Positions 397 to 9,524 of a stretch of 64,000 nucleotides of DNA are shown piece by piece; position 1 is the stretch's first letter; each line of letters opens with the position of its first letter. The notes below the pieces were generated by a model. That model was not told where the DNA came from and did not search any database. It saw only the letters and a list, made by a program, of their open reading frames with translations. The stretch lies in assembly GCF_056712565.1 (NCBI RefSeq), contig NZ_CM160072.1, one strand, 5' to 3'. The translations under genes and the position numbers were made by a program.

Positions 397-852
397 CTAT
401 CTCCCGTGATTCAGGAAGTCGATTAGTTCTTCGCGTGTGGCGCTGTAAAACGTCACGTCATCCACGCCTTTGAAGTATTTCTTGATGGTTCCTACACGCT
501 TAAGGCCAATCATTGCGCAGTACATCTGCCCGTGGCGGAATTTGCGTGCAGCAAATGATGTGACGCACTGAACGGTGGTGTTGGTCAGAATGTATCGCCA
601 GAACGCCAGCCCTATTTCCTTGCTGAAGCCGCGAATCTCTGGCAGGTACATGGCGTGGCAATCGAATGTAAGCGGCTGAATCTCCTGATAGTAAACAATG
701 CCGCCAAACTGACCGTGCACGTTCACCTCAAAGTAACGGCAATCAGGTTTGTAGTCGTATCCATCACCGTTGTTGCTCCCGGCGATGATGTCAGGGTGAT
801 TTCCTACTGCTTCGATCAGGTCGATGTTTCGCGTTGGTTTGAATGTAATCAT
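397..852 (-). CDS. P22 gp14-like virion/ejection-associated protein
   Basis: 151-aa ORF; start overlaps stop of tail-needle gene; follows gp26 as in P22 gene order. Confidence 0.5.
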   Translation of the reverse strand: MITFKPTRNIDLIEAVGNHPDIIAGSNNGDGYDYKPDCRYFEVNVHGQFGGIVYYQEIQPLTFDCHAMYLPEIRGFSKEIGLAFWRYILTNTTVQCVTSFAARKFRHGQMYCAMIGLKRVGTIKKYFKGVDDVTFYSATREELIDFLNHGR

Positions 853-2980: not shown

Positions 2981-3442
2981 TCACGTACTCGGATCATCTT
3001 TCTCGATGTAAAACCGATTCCACGTAAACGCGCTTTTGTTACCACTACCGCGAGGCATGTCATTTCGCCGCTCAAGTGGTGGTATTTTGGTTAAAGCGAT
3101 ACAGATTGTCTGATATGCACTGTCAGCAGCGGTAAGGAGAGCGTCTGACGGCTGAATGACGTTATCCATGCACACTTGCACAGCGAGTTTCAAAGCGACG
3201 CCATCATTTGCCCATGCAGGGATGCCTGAATCATCGTCAGGTAACGGCATGATGCCGTTTTCTGTATCAGCAAACTGATACCCAAGCTCGATACCTTTCG
3301 CCTGCCATGCTGCCATCATGTCTTCGAGGTCATTAATGGCATCTTCAATTGCCTGAGGGTCAGCATCTGTCAACGTGGCATTGGAATACAGCCCGGCTTT
3401 TCGTAAAGCCTTTAGAACGAGATCACCCTTCGTTTTCGCCAT
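2981..3442 (-). CDS. Tail adaptor / head-completion protein (P22 gp4-like)
   Basis: 153-aa ORF immediately downstream of coat gene region, as in P22. Confidence 0.55.
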   Translation of the reverse strand: MAKTKGDLVLKALRKAGLYSNATLTDADPQAIEDAINDLEDMMAAWQAKGIELGYQFADTENGIMPLPDDDSGIPAWANDGVALKLAVQVCMDNVIQPSDALLTAADSAYQTICIALTKIPPLERRNDMPRGSGNKSAFTWNRFYIEKDDPST

Positions 3443-3611
3443 CTTCTTCCGCCTTAGCCACTTTTTGCTTCGTTGCGGTTTCTTCAGGAGTTTTTACCCA
3501 ACCTTTTTTCAGGTGAGATTTAACTTCTTCGTCATCAACAATGATGTAATCGACAGCAAACTGACCGCAGGTGATCATGTTGCCTGGCTTATAGAGCATT
3601 GTTCGTGCCAT
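3423..3611 (-). CDS. Small hypothetical protein between coat and gp4-like genes
   Basis: 62-aa ORF from internal ATG at 3611 with GGGAGAAG Shine-Dalgarno; overlaps gp4-like start by 20 nt. Confidence 0.3.
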   Translation of the reverse strand: MARTMLYKPGNMITCGQFAVDYIIVDDEEVKSHLKKGWVKTPEETATKQKVAKAEEDGENEG

Positions 3612-3652
3612 TGTCTTCTCCCAATAAAAATGGGGCCGAAGCCCCACCAAAA

Positions 3653-4906
3653 TTACTGCCCAGCAATAACGATGCCCGTATATTCAGGAACCAGTACAGA
3701 GCAACCGTACAGAGTGGTGAAACGCGCAGTGGTTACGCCTTTGATGTGGTCGAAGGAGTAAGACATGATCAGCGTAGCGCCCTGCTCGGTGGTTGCTGTC
3801 ATTACCTGTGGACCCTGACCAGTTGGGAACGCCAGTTTGCCGTACATCAGTTCAACAGAACCATCAGCCCAGAACAGGTTAGCAGGTGCTGCGTTCTTGT
3901 TGAGAATGGTGATTGCTGCTGATTCTGCCGGTTTGGCATCGACGTTTGCATATGGACGACTCGCAACATCAGTATTTTCAACAGGGAGAATCTTTGGAGA
4001 AATTGTTACGGTAGTTCCGCTAACAGCCAGAACACGGAATACCTGCGGTTGACCGGTGGTATCTTTTGTGATCTGGTGTACGGAATTCACACCGGCAATG
4101 GTGAACGCATCACCAACCTGCAAGCCAGATGCAGATACCGTAATAGTCCCCTGTCGGTTATCAACTGGCATACCATTTGAATCTTTCGCTTCAACCTTGT
4201 GTTCAGGTTGGCCTGATACTGTCAAGGATTCAGTGCTTCCTTTCGGTAATCGACCAGAAATATCGGTCTTGTAGCTATCAAAGGAAGCAACCGGAGGGAT
4301 CTGCGCTTTTTCGTATGCTGTCAGGGTTGCGCCCTGAGCGTAGGCTCGGTGACCAAGCTCGCCAGCAAGGTCTTTGTAGTTGAAGGGGTTCCAAAAAGAG
4401 CGGCGGTTGATACCCTGTGGCACACCAATCGCCGTCATGGTGGCATCAATACCTGCCGCACAGTTCCACAAATCACGGCCCTGTGAACCAGTGGTTGAGT
4501 CAGCCATTGTGATCACGTTAGTAGCACGCTGCGTGACCATGGAAATCAGGTCAGAGTCAATCTGTGCAGCAAGGCGCATACCTGCGGCGCGACCAGCTTC
4601 AGTTTTATGCTCAGGGTCACGCATTTCACGCGCATCCAGAGTGTACAGAATGTTTTTCGGCTCCTTGAACACTGAAGGAACAAGGCGCTGAACCAGTGCT
4701 GTTGGCGTTTTGCTGCTGAGGTCGAGGCCTTCCTCAATGTTCATGTGGTAATGCTGCGGACGATACAGAACATCACCTGCTCGCTGCATTGCTGTATCAC
4801 CGGGACGGAATTTTTTAGCGTTACGGGAAACTACGCAGGCGGCCTCAAAGCCTTCAACGTAGTTTTCGAACATGATTTCAAGGTCTTTTGCTAATTGGTT
4901 ATCCAT
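3653..4906 (-). CDS. Major coat protein (P22 gp5-like)
   Basis: 417-aa ORF; C-terminal half shares motifs with recalled P22 coat (FAGV, NxFWADD, SxP); follows scaffold gene. Confidence 0.85.
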   Translation of the reverse strand: MDNQLAKDLEIMFENYVEGFEAACVVSRNAKKFRPGDTAMQRAGDVLYRPQHYHMNIEEGLDLSSKTPTALVQRLVPSVFKEPKNILYTLDAREMRDPEHKTEAGRAAGMRLAAQIDSDLISMVTQRATNVITMADSTTGSQGRDLWNCAAGIDATMTAIGVPQGINRRSFWNPFNYKDLAGELGHRAYAQGATLTAYEKAQIPPVASFDSYKTDISGRLPKGSTESLTVSGQPEHKVEAKDSNGMPVDNRQGTITVSASGLQVGDAFTIAGVNSVHQITKDTTGQPQVFRVLAVSGTTVTISPKILPVENTDVASRPYANVDAKPAESAAITILNKNAAPANLFWADGSVELMYGKLAFPTGQGPQVMTATTEQGATLIMSYSFDHIKGVTTARFTTLYGCSVLVPEYTGIVIAGQ

Positions 4907-4924
4907 GCTTAATGCTCCGATAGG

Positions 4925-5818
4925 TTATTTTTTTGCCTTTTTAGCGGCGAAATACGGCGTCCAGTCACCAGTTTCCAGCGCCTTGGCTTTCAATTTGTCG
5001 AGGTTGTTGATTACTGCGCCGTTGCTCCCCTTAACCGTCGGGGTTGTGGCTGCCGTGGTTTTTGCTTTTGGCATGATTCTGGCCTTCGATTCGATACGTT
5101 CCAGCAGACGACCAATTGCTACGGGGTTGGTAGCTTCTGCCAGTTGCTTGCGCAGTTCAGCGTTGCGACCAAGCGCCAGAACAACGATTTCCGGCTTCTC
5201 TGACTCAAACAGGATCGCGTTTTGTGTCTCGATGGGGATTTCCTCGAGTACGGCCTGCTCAGCTTCCTGATAGCCAGGAACTTTGAGAGCCTTAACACGT
5301 TGCTGATATTTGGATAATCGCTCTTGATAGGCAGCCTGAAGCTCCTGCTCCTTCTGCTTGCGAGCCATCTCCTGTTGCTGGTACTTGCCATTATCCTCTG
5401 CCCACTTAGCCATGCGTTGCTGGTAGATTTCTTCATCGAAACCGATGTCCTCATCATCCAGTTTTGGCATTCGCGGTGGTTGAGTGATTACCGGCTGCTG
5501 CTCGACGGGTTTCTGAGACTGACGCATCAGCTCTTTCAGCTCGCGGTCTTTCTCTTTAATCGTCTTGCGCAGGTGTTTTACCAGTCCATGCTCAGCGCCA
5601 TCTTCGCTGGTTGGCGAATCCAGCTTTTCGTCACCAAAGTAGAATTCCTGTTCTGATTCGTCGTCATCAGTTTCAGTAGCCTCCTCTGCATCATTGCCTG
5701 AGGACTCACTGCCATCTTCTGTTTCGACTTTTTCAGCCAGTTCGACATCATCAGGAATCTGCTCTGACGCGTCGGTTTCGATTTCAACTTCTGGTGTGTT
5801 TTCTGCCATCTGGTCCAT
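4925..5818 (-). CDS. Scaffolding protein (P22 gp8-like)
   Basis: 297-aa ORF, highly acidic N-terminus and charged helical composition, between portal and coat. Confidence 0.7.
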   Translation of the reverse strand: MDQMAENTPEVEIETDASEQIPDDVELAEKVETEDGSESSGNDAEEATETDDDESEQEFYFGDEKLDSPTSEDGAEHGLVKHLRKTIKEKDRELKELMRQSQKPVEQQPVITQPPRMPKLDDEDIGFDEEIYQQRMAKWAEDNGKYQQQEMARKQKEQELQAAYQERLSKYQQRVKALKVPGYQEAEQAVLEEIPIETQNAILFESEKPEIVVLALGRNAELRKQLAEATNPVAIGRLLERIESKARIMPKAKTTAATTPTVKGSNGAVINNLDKLKAKALETGDWTPYFAAKKAKK

Positions 5819-5908: not shown

Positions 5909-8107
5909 TTACTGCTGTGGTTGTTGCTGAGTTGATTTTTGCAGGATGCTGCTGATGTCCATGCGCTGCGCATGGCCCTGTGCCTGACTTTTCAGGACAA
6001 GCTCTGCATCAGCACGGGCATTGTCTCCTTGCTGTTGCTGGAACTGTCCGAGCAGTTTCAGAGCCTCGCGGATATCAGATTTCTGCTGGCTATCGGCAGA
6101 TGCGAGGATTTTCACAACATTTGCCGCTGCAACCTGAGCATCAGTCTGTGCCTGGAATGCTTTAACCTGAATGGCTGCCTGCTCGTTCTGCGCTTTCTGC
6201 AATTCAGCCTGACCAGCAAGAAGCTGACCTTGCGCAGCAACCATAGCCGGATCTGGCTGACTGGCCTGTTGTTGTTTCGCCTGCTCAACCATCTGCTGTT
6301 CTTCTGGCGTTCTCGGCTTGATAACTCCAGACAGAAGCAACTGATTGCGGTTGTATTCTTTAAGGTCGTCCATCCCTTCGCCGTCCATATTGTCGAGGAT
6401 CATCGACGATACAAGGTCGTGTTTCGGCGTTCCGGGCGGGATAAGTGCCAGCATGGAAAGTAACGACTTAACCGTTGCGTCACGGCGAGTAGCGAACGAC
6501 TGACCGACATCGACAGTCACTTCATAGTTACCCTGCGAAAGGTCGTTAAGCGCGATAACCTGCCCTGTCTGACGGTCAACCACTTCACCAGTCATCAGCG
6601 CCACGTCATCGCTGCCGTCCTCATTAACGATACGCATCGGCGTATCGCTGCCATAGACTTCACGAGCCATAGAAAGCCACACAACGCCAGCGCGACGCAT
6701 GGATTTAGCCATGTTGTCCATGTAGATATAGGACTGCGTATCCATCCGGTTAAAGATGCTATCAACGGTATCGGTAGCAACGTTGCTCGGCATGTTCTCA
6801 AGCTGCGACGCACCTGTAATTTGCTGAATAGCCGTTCCGGTGTACTGCAATAGCCCGGCAAGAGCTGGAGGCATTTGTGTCGGAGGCGTATAACTGCTGA
6901 CCTGAGCCTGCGCAGTAATATCTCCGTTTTTGTTTTTCAGACTGACCATCGGCAGGAACGCCGGGCGCTTTTTGTTGCGCTCCGCCCAATGAGTGGCGAG
7001 AGGACCAGGAATCATGTCAACATCAACTACAGGAATGCCATCACCGCCAGCCTGAGTAGCGTTATCTGCAATCATGGAAACCATCAGGTTCTCAAGACGC
7101 TGTGCATCCATCGCTTTTGCTGCGTGGCCTTCGATTCGTTCCTGATTATCAACAAATGAGCGACGTCCATATACCGGGATGAGAGGAATATGTTCGCCCG
7201 GAATACGCTTCGGTTCTTCCAGCCATTCAGCGCCAGACAGAAGGCCGCAATAAACGCGGCGTTTCTTCACCGTTCGCTCGCCAATCAGTTCGAATGCACC
7301 ATCGGTCAGCTCGTCGACAATATCTTTGATTTGCTCTTCATCATAGATTGCCGTTTCTCCGCTAACAGGGTTGCGCCATGCCGTGAGCTTCACCTTCTCT
7401 ATGCGAACTTCGTAGTAGCGCCCAACATAGATGGCATCTGGCGTTGACCAGTCATATTGAGTGCCAGTCTCATCACGAGAAAGGCCTGCCGCGATGGAAT
7501 CAGGGTATTCAGCCTCGAACGCTTTAGGCGTCATGGAGAACATTTCCATAGCCCACATAGCATCAGAACGGTCATATTGCTTGCTGTCCTGATCGAAGAA
7601 GACGCATGTCGCTGGGTCGTAAACAGGAAGAAGGCTGATGCGTCGCTGCTCGTTACTTGGGTCCATTTCATCTTCGTAATCGGCACACATGCGGAAACAA
7701 CCGAATCCGCCCGTTACAGCATCATCAAATGCGTTATCACACGCTTCGCCACCTGATGTTTCCTGATAGTCAGCGCGGAATTTGCCGTTCATCTTTTTGG
7801 CTAACGCTTCCGATGCCTTGTCATCCTTCGGCCTGAATTTAACGCTGATGCGATTCTGTCGATACTCGCCAATGATGCGATCACATTCACGGGCAATCTT
7901 ATTCAGTTCAAAGCGCGGGTAATGCTCAAACCTGCCTTCATCAAATGAGTAACCAGCGTTTGTGCTGCCTTCCCACTGTGCGCCGGATACCCGGACGAAA
8001 CGTTGAGCCTCAATAATCTGCTCACGCATATCCTGCGTTGCTGACCAGGCATTATCAAAGTTGCACAGCACCTTGCGATGCCAGTCAGTCATCTTTTTTT
8101 CTGCCAT
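5909..8107 (-). CDS. Portal protein (P22 gp1-like)
   Basis: 732-aa ORF directly downstream of TerL; long Gln/Ala-rich C-terminal helical tail as in P22 portal barrel. Confidence 0.85.
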   Translation of the reverse strand: MAEKKMTDWHRKVLCNFDNAWSATQDMREQIIEAQRFVRVSGAQWEGSTNAGYSFDEGRFEHYPRFELNKIARECDRIIGEYRQNRISVKFRPKDDKASEALAKKMNGKFRADYQETSGGEACDNAFDDAVTGGFGCFRMCADYEDEMDPSNEQRRISLLPVYDPATCVFFDQDSKQYDRSDAMWAMEMFSMTPKAFEAEYPDSIAAGLSRDETGTQYDWSTPDAIYVGRYYEVRIEKVKLTAWRNPVSGETAIYDEEQIKDIVDELTDGAFELIGERTVKKRRVYCGLLSGAEWLEEPKRIPGEHIPLIPVYGRRSFVDNQERIEGHAAKAMDAQRLENLMVSMIADNATQAGGDGIPVVDVDMIPGPLATHWAERNKKRPAFLPMVSLKNKNGDITAQAQVSSYTPPTQMPPALAGLLQYTGTAIQQITGASQLENMPSNVATDTVDSIFNRMDTQSYIYMDNMAKSMRRAGVVWLSMAREVYGSDTPMRIVNEDGSDDVALMTGEVVDRQTGQVIALNDLSQGNYEVTVDVGQSFATRRDATVKSLLSMLALIPPGTPKHDLVSSMILDNMDGEGMDDLKEYNRNQLLLSGVIKPRTPEEQQMVEQAKQQQASQPDPAMVAAQGQLLAGQAELQKAQNEQAAIQVKAFQAQTDAQVAAANVVKILASADSQQKSDIREALKLLGQFQQQQGDNARADAELVLKSQAQGHAQRMDISSILQKSTQQQPQQ

Positions 8108-8108
8108 A

Positions 8109-9524
8109 TCAACCTACACCACAAGGAATTGAGTAACTGGAATAGTCGGGTTGCGCAGCCGACTCCGGGCAATGCATACACATCATCAGCGCATCAGCCA
8201 GGTTAGGAGATGGGATACCGAGCTTCTGCTTCATTTCGACCTTAGTCATAAGCTCCAGTTTCCCGTTATTATTGAATTTGCGCTGAATCTGCGTCAGTTC
8301 TGCAAACAGTTTCTCCAGCATCTTCTCGCCTATCGCTTCTTTGTCGAAGCTCAGCATGTCGTCGGGGTCTGCATACTCACCGTGGACAACCGCCCGATAT
8401 GTCAGATACAGCCTGTCAGCCAGCGCGTAATAGAATTGCGCTCGCTTATTGCGGAATACATCGCCAATAGTGCGAACGTTGTCACCCTGTACGACTTCAT
8501 CAGCCCATGCTCCGGCCTGATACGGAGCATCTTCATCGAATGGCGATTCGCTGCCCTTGAACATCGTGGCGGTAATTTTCTTGCCGGAGAATGCTTCCGT
8601 TGTCTGTCTGCGTAGCCCTGCACCGACACCATCGCCATCCCACAGGTAATGGTCAGCGCCGTCTTCAATCGCCAGCGAAGTAGCCCAGTCAGCACCCTCG
8701 TTGATGTCCATCAGCAGACCTTCGGCAATGCGCTTAACTACCGAACCGTGACGCGATGCATAACCTTTAGCATCTGGCCCTGTATCTGATGGGTCATGCG
8801 CAGAGACAACAGCGCCTTTCGCTTTCCATCCGAGTTTCTTGTGCGCATCGGTTGCGGCTTCAAGCCATTCACGTTTGATGATTGCCATATCACTTGCGCT
8901 TACTGGCTCACCAAGCCAGATGTGACGATACAGTGTCGGGTTTCTGCGTTTACACTCTTCCATCTCCAGACGGAGAACTTCAGGAAAGTGCGGGTTGTCG
9001 GTGTAGTTCACCGTCAGCAGACAAATATCATCGGGAGGGTTTACTACGAATCGCTGATAGGTATCGTCGAGGATGTTTTTCGGGTTGAAGCTCACCCATA
9101 TTTCGGAAAATGGCTTGCGGATGGTTGGTATCAGGATATCCCATGATTCCTTCGTTACCGCTTCCGCTTCCTCCACCCAGCAGATATCAATGCCTTCGAG
9201 CGATTTAATCTTCGTCGGGTTGTTTTTGATGCCGTAGAACATGAACTCAGCATTCGTCCCGAGATGACGAATCATGGAACGCTGAATTTCAAACTCAGCC
9301 GTATACCCTTCACGCTCTATGGTGTCTTCAAGCAGCCGGATTACCGAATCGCTGATACTGTTTTGCAGTTCACGAGCGCAGAGAATACGCACTGGCTGCC
9401 GACGCGCCGCTTCAACAAGCAGTCTCGCAATTGCCCATGATTTACCGCTACCTCGACCGCCTTTGGCGACTTTGTAGCGATGCGCCTCAATGAACGGTTC
9501 AAAGATAGGATTAATCGAGGTCAT
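8109..9524 (-). CDS. Terminase large subunit
   Basis: 471-aa ORF with Walker A (KGGRGSGKS) near N-terminus; overlaps TerS stop by 4 nt. Confidence 0.9.
   Translation of the reverse strand: MTSINPIFEPFIEAHRYKVAKGGRGSGKSWAIARLLVEAARRQPVRILCARELQNSISDSVIRLLEDTIEREGYTAEFEIQRSMIRHLGTNAEFMFYGIKNNPTKIKSLEGIDICWVEEAEAVTKESWDILIPTIRKPFSEIWVSFNPKNILDDTYQRFVVNPPDDICLLTVNYTDNPHFPEVLRLEMEECKRRNPTLYRHIWLGEPVSASDMAIIKREWLEAATDAHKKLGWKAKGAVVSAHDPSDTGPDAKGYASRHGSVVKRIAEGLLMDINEGADWATSLAIEDGADHYLWDGDGVGAGLRRQTTEAFSGKKITATMFKGSESPFDEDAPYQAGAWADEVVQGDNVRTIGDVFRNKRAQFYYALADRLYLTYRAVVHGEYADPDDMLSFDKEAIGEKMLEKLFAELTQIQRKFNNNGKLELMTKVEMKQKLGIPSPNLADALMMCMHCPESAAQPDYSSYSIPCGVG

Follow-up and report, generated by a model that had tools for sequence, protein, structure and literature searches.

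Does the short open reading frame between the coat gene and the gp4-type gene of a P22-like prophage encode a protein and, if it does, what is that protein for? We examined this locus in a window of 64,000 nucleotides, by which we mean the whole stretch of DNA that was analysed (NZ_CM160072.1). Positions 1..~26000 of the window belong to a Lederbergvirus prophage that resembles CUS-3 and lies on the minus strand. It is cut at the left window edge after a gp14-like gene (397..852); no tRNA genes were found in the window. The small ORF runs on the minus strand from 3611 to 3423 (189 nt including the stop codon, with ATG at 3611-3609 and TGA at 3425-3423) and specifies a product of 62 amino acids, MARTMLYKPGNMITCGQFAVDYIIVDDEEVKSHLKKGWVKTPEETATKQKVAKAEEDGENEG. 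A Shine-Dalgarno sequence, GGGAG (3618..3622, minus), can be read upstream with a 6-nt spacer to the ATG. The upstream neighbour is the coat (major capsid) gene of CUS-3 type (3653..4906, minus; 417 aa), which matches PF11651 P22_CoatProtein (E 1.6e-75) and phrog_283. The downstream neighbour is a gp4-type head-tail adaptor (tail accessory factor) gene (2981..3442, minus; 153 aa), which matches PF11650 P22_Tail-4 (E 7e-41) and phrog_637, head-tail adaptor Ad3 (E 5.7e-70). The sequence-only reading had described a 62-residue ORF with a good Shine-Dalgarno sequence and a 20-nt overlap with gp4, and on re-reading the sequence all of this was as stated.

Directly 3' of the coat stop, a terminator scan reveals a terminator-like hairpin followed by a U-rich tract (3624..3648, minus). 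The hairpin has a GGGGC-UUCG-GCCCC core and an extended stem (3648-3629), and is placed between the coat stop and the Shine-Dalgarno sequence of the small ORF. It is the sole structure kept in the centroid fold of the 66-nt segment that contains it, and this segment, taken whole, folds no more stably than shuffled sequences (z -0.49). The annotations of related phages mark an equivalent element: Sf6 and phage L list it as a terminator, named "t coat" in Sf6, and P22 lists it as a stem_loop. A longer, 75-residue version of the ORF starting from a TTG at 3650 was rejected: this TTG is inside the hairpin and is used by no homologue. On the opposite strand, a 128-codon ORF with a GTG start (3375..3761, plus) spans the small ORF, the hairpin and the 3' end of the coat gene; nothing supports it, and it is almost certainly a shadow of the genes on the minus strand. 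The length of the small ORF is uninformative by itself, because the ORF listing for the window contains dozens of spurious ORFs of 30-130 residues.

Conservation is a better guide. We calculated dN/dS from the DNA of five divergent alleles over codons 1-46, i.e. outside the overlap with gp4, and also ran the whole ORF. The annotated frame gives values of 0.12-0.50, compared to about 0.6-3.6 in the two shifted control frames, with dS among the five alleles reaching about 1.9. Changes are concentrated at third codon positions, for example 9/8/27 at the three positions between the window and the relative L016. The sequence-only reading had set conservation of the frame across P22-like relatives as the check beforehand, and had named an unconserved frame with non-coding-like variation as the outcome that would speak against a gene. 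What we find is the reverse, both in these ratios and in the conserved synteny described below, so the annotated frame is coding. The pattern of substitution thus marks the small ORF as a genuine coding sequence under purifying selection, carried by a P22-like (Lederbergvirus) prophage of CUS-3 type.

The gene is also widespread. Its locus is 97.6-99.7% identical in 11 isolated phages, including CUS-3, Sf101, Kapi1 and JEP4, and it is carried by 425 of the 5426 complete E. coli genomes at a nucleotide identity of at least 90%. E. coli DSM 30083 (ATCC 11775) carries an identical copy (100%), and so does an APEC O1:K1:H7 strain; the host of the prophage is therefore E. coli. Protein searches return 46 matching clusters, one of them on at least 1000 contigs, and 35 representatives at 50% clustering. 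In every full-length E. coli record among the matches listed, PGAP names the product a "hypothetical protein" beside a "packaged DNA stabilization gp4 family protein".

Which family does the product belong to? The small ORF matches phrog_1175 with an E-value of 9.2e-29, residues 2-56 aligning to profile positions 1-55 of 72, and the same profile is matched by P22 orf69 (NP_059631; E 4.5e-31) and by 29 of 30 aligned relatives of the small ORF. A direct BLASTP comparison of the small ORF with P22 orf69 aligns 42 residues at 26% identity (E 4e-7). The premise of the sequence-only reading that P22 itself has no gene here was wrong: in NC_002371, orf69 is placed at 6135..6344, beyond gene 5 and the stem-loop after it, and overlaps gene 4 by 17 nt. 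Judged by profile and position, the small ORF is the CUS-3-type orthologue of P22 orf69, epsilon34 gene 6 and phage L orf186. Since it is the counterpart of P22's long-annotated orf69, it is ordinary and already known, being annotated in CUS-3, Sf101, P22 and hundreds of E. coli genomes. A tblastn search with P22 orf69 finds 102 phage records, and many Salmonella P22-like phages (L, ST64T, epsilon34 with its gene 6, and BTP1) match orf69 over the first ~44 residues only.

The accessible part of the literature on epsilon34 dates the knowledge of P22 orf69 to 1991, and describes the P22 gene as dispensable in the laboratory, i.e. for plaque formation; it also notes that homologues of epsilon34 gene 6 vary in length and that the P22 and Scho1 versions have internal deletions (PMC2629481). 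A literature search of partial coverage on P22 orf69, hkbT, WDGH and the interval between the coat gene and gene 4 returned nothing relevant. Pfam and NCBIfam contain no family for the small ORF, Rfam contains none for its region (best E 0.8, far below gathering), and the PADLOC defence HMMs give 0 families at E ≤ 0.1 for the small ORF, orf69, Orf186 and two long relatives.

The AlphaFold2 (AF2) model and the alignments divide the protein into a conserved folded N-terminal domain (codons 1-45; 3477..3611, minus) and a variable, acidic, disordered tail (codons 46-62; 3426..3476, minus). In the model, which was built from 30 sequences, a β-hairpin (3-15/18-26) is followed by a helix (27-35), a GW turn (37-38), a second helix (42-51) and a disordered end. 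The mean pLDDT is 79, with about 87-94 over residues 1-40; in the tail it falls to means of 48 for residues 51-60 and 38 for residues 61-62, and residues 55-62 are all below 50. Y7, G37 and W38 are invariant in the family alignments, and M5, L6, G10, D21 and P42 are nearly so. A profile search of 177,635 distinct PDB chain sequences, with orf69 included in the profile, gives no meaningful match (the best is a ribosomal protein, E 0.097), and a fold search against PDB structures finds no match for the model of the small ORF. Matches in BFVD are to uncharacterised phage proteins only. The N-domain is thus a confidently modelled, predicted fold that is absent from the solved structures and Pfam families searched. 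A Dec-like capsid decoration protein was considered and rejected, as the small ORF has no PDB match of any kind; phage L Dec is itself present there as 6E3C (PMC6449081).

The C-terminal part has no comparable constancy. Tails in the family range from 7 to 145 residues and vary in content as well as length. They are mostly net acidic, and in about half of them there is a short patch of basic residues (such as KPGRKPK, KRGRPAK or RGRPRK). A broad basic-patch pattern occurs in 17 of the 32 sequences scanned, 31 of which are relatives, and an RGRP/GRP-type core occurs in few; one relative has a weak match to the Pfam AT_hook (PF02178; E 0.015). The tail of the small ORF has a net charge of -4 over its last 20 residues and no basic motif. 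We therefore rejected an AT-hook DNA-binding protein, as this tail lacks a GRP core flanked by basic residues. Relatives of 99-184 residues carry long coiled-coil or acidic regions. In two relatives the end of the protein gave the impression of an HeH/Rho_N-like motif, which was not backed by Pfam and was set aside. In phage L, Orf186 (L017, AY795968, 2501..3061) consists of the N-domain, an inserted WDGH domain (PF25311; E 2e-40, 98 residues) and a basic tail (KERKKPGPKPKAESDADKD). The same 186-residue form, with WDGH between the N-domain and the basic tail, is found in many Salmonella P22-like phages, epsilon34 (gene 6), ST64T and BTP1 among them.

The small gene is also a site of recombination. 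We compared the window by sliding identity and mismatch positions with L005, an E. coli prophage (CP123346) whose small-ORF allele is 87% identical. The two are 95-100% identical through the portal and scaffold genes to about 5010, and again from about 3552 through gp4 and gp10, whereas between them (~5006..3552, minus) identity falls to 55-72%. This corresponds to a cassette swap of ~1.45 kb, which starts in the scaffold gene, ~27 codons before its end, takes in the whole coat gene and the hairpin, and reaches ~20 codons into the small ORF. The encoded proteins follow the same pattern, with 97% identity for scaffold, 65% (amino acids) for coat, 99% for gp4 and 98% for gp10; within the small ORF, residues 1-22 are 64% identical and residues 23-62 are 100% identical. 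One junction therefore maps to about codon 20 of the small ORF (3540..3560, minus), and the left one to the C-terminal segment of scaffold, which is the coat-binding part. Co-evolution of the N-terminus of the small ORF with the coat protein was considered, as the L005 swap carries both, and rejected: L016 pairs a window-type coat (87%) with an L005-type N-terminus (86%). Because the N-terminus in L016 does not track the coat type, the junction is read as a recombination boundary and not as a signal of coat interaction.

In all metagenomic or genomic relatives examined (12/12, with about 34-87% identity to the query), the small ORF is placed immediately 5' of a gp4-type adaptor gene. This sample represents 12 of 14 exact-protein look-ups and accession fetches. 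The adaptor neighbour belongs to PF11650 in 11 of the 12; in the twelfth (L018) it has an N-terminal Gp77 "fiber-tail adaptor" domain and a weak PF11650 match. The gp4 proteins of these relatives are down to 25% identical to that of the window. Three of the loci (L008, L009, L010) have extra ORFs between the coat gene and the small ORF, and none has any between the small ORF and gp4. The order coat, small gene, gp4 is common to the window, P22, L, CUS-3 and Sf101. In a metagenomic relative (L012), the gene 3' of the small ORF (6194..8377) encodes 727 residues, with a P22_Tail-4 adaptor fused to large extra domains.

The contact between the two genes is itself conserved. In the window, 20 nt (3423..3442, minus) are dual-coding: they specify the end of the small ORF, DGENEG and the stop, and in the +1 frame the start of gp4, MAKTKGD. 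Conservation of DGENEG and the stop is not creditable to the small protein, because those 6-7 codons also encode the conserved N-terminus of gp4. Ten gp4-overlapping arrangements, with P22, L and Sf6 counted, have overlaps of 11, 14, 14, 17, 17, 20, 20, 20, 23 and 26 nt (sites are listed for the window, L003, L004, L005, L009, L010, L012, L013, L014, L016, L017 and L020). All of these lengths are 2 mod 3, so that gp4 is always in the +1 frame; L008, L018 and L019 have gaps of 2-6 nt instead. The constant frame implies a putatively homologous dual-coding junction, kept over very deep divergence. Given this overlap geometry and the terminator-like hairpin annotated after the coat gene in Sf6, P22 and L, we propose a model of coupled expression: the geometry suggests that the small ORF is the first cistron of a low-expression head-completion block in which translation of gp4 is coupled to it.

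What, then, might the protein do? Our proposal, which we hold tentatively and with somewhat less than even confidence, is that the small protein is a dispensable accessory factor, co-translated with gp4 and acting at packaging or head completion. The small ORF is read as part of the late operon, immediately 3' of the post-coat hairpin, and has a strong ribosome-binding site of its own. Ribosomes that end the small ORF would pass translation to the gp4 start, and the two proteins would be made together at similarly low levels. The N-domain would then serve as a dispensable helper at the step from DNA packaging to head completion, as gp4 docks on the portal, working on gp4, the portal or the capsid. 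The small protein would not be an ordered, stoichiometric component of the virion. The linkage to gp4 in 12/12 relatives, which holds even where extra ORFs follow the coat gene, supports such a role, and the result that no family member or fold match is found among PDB chains speaks against an ordered virion part. In vitro, gp4, gp10 and gp26 alone suffice to complete P22 heads. For this reason, and because the P22 gene is dispensable, the helper role would be at most quantitative. The tight linkage to gp4 could also stem from shared expression signals and not from shared function.

An extended form of the proposal seems improbable to us. It would make the N-domain a previously undescribed fold that P22-like podophages universally use as a handle linked to gp4 or the portal, tethering interchangeable C-terminal modules (none, basic patches, coiled-coils or a WDGH domain) to the packaging and head-completion vertex. 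If this were true, the family would represent a modular portal-vertex accessory system, or a vehicle for co-injected cargo, that is uncharacterised despite 35 years of annotation.

The alternative that survives best, although we think it unlikely, is that the product has no part in morphogenesis and is an accessory protein of the late operon, for example for host modulation or counter-defence, with the N-domain as the handle and the working cargo in the variable C-terminal part. The dispensability of the P22 gene in the laboratory, as given in the accessible part of PMC2629481, would agree with this, as would the recombination junctions inside the gene and the extreme variability of the C-terminal content, from none in CUS-3 to WDGH in phage L Orf186 and coiled-coil or acidic regions in the relatives of 99-184 residues. 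With such cargo (WDGH, coiled-coil or acidic stretches, basic patches), the protein looks more like an accessory, moron-type product than a core assembly factor. However, morons are usually sporadic, yet the small gene is present in 12/12 loci and always abuts gp4. The PADLOC searches give no match, and the version in the window is under purifying selection although it carries no cargo.

A quite unlikely reading is that the product is a minor or internal virion protein, packaged in few copies close to the portal or to the end of the DNA and perhaps ejected. Sf101 gp06 (L001, NC_027398, 3110..3298) is labelled "virion structural protein" in RefSeq, and the small gene sits among structural genes. 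The basic patch in about half of the relatives, together with the one weak AT_hook match (E 0.015), could allow contact with DNA. Against this, the GenBank record of Sf101 has "hypothetical protein", as do all other database records, and no experimental basis was found for the RefSeq label. High-resolution structures exist for the virions and tail machines of P22 and Sf6. No PDB chain belongs to the family, although the search profile included P22 orf69. In the small ORF itself the tail is acidic and lacks a basic motif. Virions of epsilon34 show a strong band of ~15 kDa on gels, which is the Dec decoration protein. Apart from this one strong band, the tailspike and the size of the ejection protein gp13, the epsilon34 gels are those of P22, and the accessible part of their description mentions no separate band for the gene 6 product (PMC2629481). 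A literature search of partial coverage on Lederbergvirus virion proteomics returned no proteomic report for the family.

Compared to these, a purely translational role is very improbable. Beyond the post-coat terminator, synthesis of gp4 would then be set or enabled by translation of the small ORF, and the peptide would be nearly functionless. The strong Shine-Dalgarno sequence, the end of the small ORF inside gp4 and the constant overlap frame in all ten overlapping arrangements are what a leader would need, and Sf6-type phages show the same arrangement with a small ORF that is apparently unrelated. But a dN/dS near 0.2 over codons 1-46 is not expected of a pure leader, nor is the invariance of Y7, G37 and W38 in relatives down to about 25-35% identity, nor a confidently predicted fold. 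Finally, that the ORF is an untranslated chance or annotation artefact, as its shortness among many spurious ORFs of similar length and the missing Pfam or NCBIfam family might suggest, has next to no probability left and is effectively refuted by the conservation test, in view of the frame-specific purifying selection, the conserved start and Shine-Dalgarno sequence, and the existence of hundreds of intact copies and of deeply divergent homologues. The sequence-only reading had offered a small virion or assembly factor or an artefact; the artefact falls by conservation and the virion protein is without support among PDB chains, while an assembly factor, by virtue of the gp4 linkage, stays plausible.

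For discovery this adds little, as the gene has long been annotated, always as a hypothetical protein. Our results correct the notion that P22 lacks a gene in the interval between coat and gp4, quantify the purifying selection on the frame and the invariable linkage to gp4 over deep divergence, and define the orf69 family as a conserved domain of 45 residues with a swappable tail. Few assembly systems are as well studied as that of P22, so a late gene that is universally conserved but has no assigned role represents a small standing gap.

The packaging and head-completion helper proposed here can be set beside several named systems. The closest are CUS-3 ECRS218_0017 and Sf101 gp06, which are 98-100% identical in protein, have the identical gene arrangement and are annotated as a 189-nt CDS. 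There is essentially no difference between them and the small ORF of the window, which is the same gene in a prophage copy. Behind the post-coat hairpin, P22, epsilon34 and phage L have orf69, gene 6 and Orf186, respectively, in the position of the small ORF. Their stops likewise lie inside gene 4 (the overlap is 20 nt in the window and 17 nt in P22 and L), and they share with the small ORF the N-terminal motif [ML][IL]YKxG...[IV]D..[ED][VL]...[LV]K.GW..P. They differ in what follows the N-domain: the small ORF, as in the CUS-3 type, ends in a short acidic tail, KAEEDGENEG, where P22 orf69 has a basic PRKGRKPK patch, and, unlike the small ORF, the L and epsilon34 versions contain the inserted WDGH domain.

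Sf6 gene 6, which is similar to HK620 hkbT, is more distant. In Sf6 (L003, NC_005344, 6185..6370) it encodes 61 residues at the same position, after the "t coat" terminator, and its last 26 nt are shared with the gp4 homologue, in the relative frame seen for the small ORF. Unlike the small ORF, it belongs to PHROG 3251, and the small ORF gives no match to phrog_3251. An hhalign comparison of the small-ORF family with PHROG 3251 gives a faint match over 30 columns (E 0.02, probability 2.4%) on an equivalent ...VI.E.DF...K.GFV segment. We treat Sf6 gene 6 as a positional analogue, and may be either a very remote homologue or a replacement of the orf69 family.

Outside the P22-like phages, the nearest analogy is with gpFI of phage lambda. 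The small protein shows no sequence or fold similarity to gpFI or to any PDB chain, and the comparison is therefore an analogy only. gpFI, whose gene lies between E and FII, is an accessory protein of DNA packaging; it is small, dispensable or leaky, absent from the virion, and built from one small folded domain and a long, charged, flexible region. By analogy, the small protein resembles gpFI in its gene position, between the major capsid gene and a head-completion, adaptor-type gene, and in its architecture, with the order of the two domains reversed.
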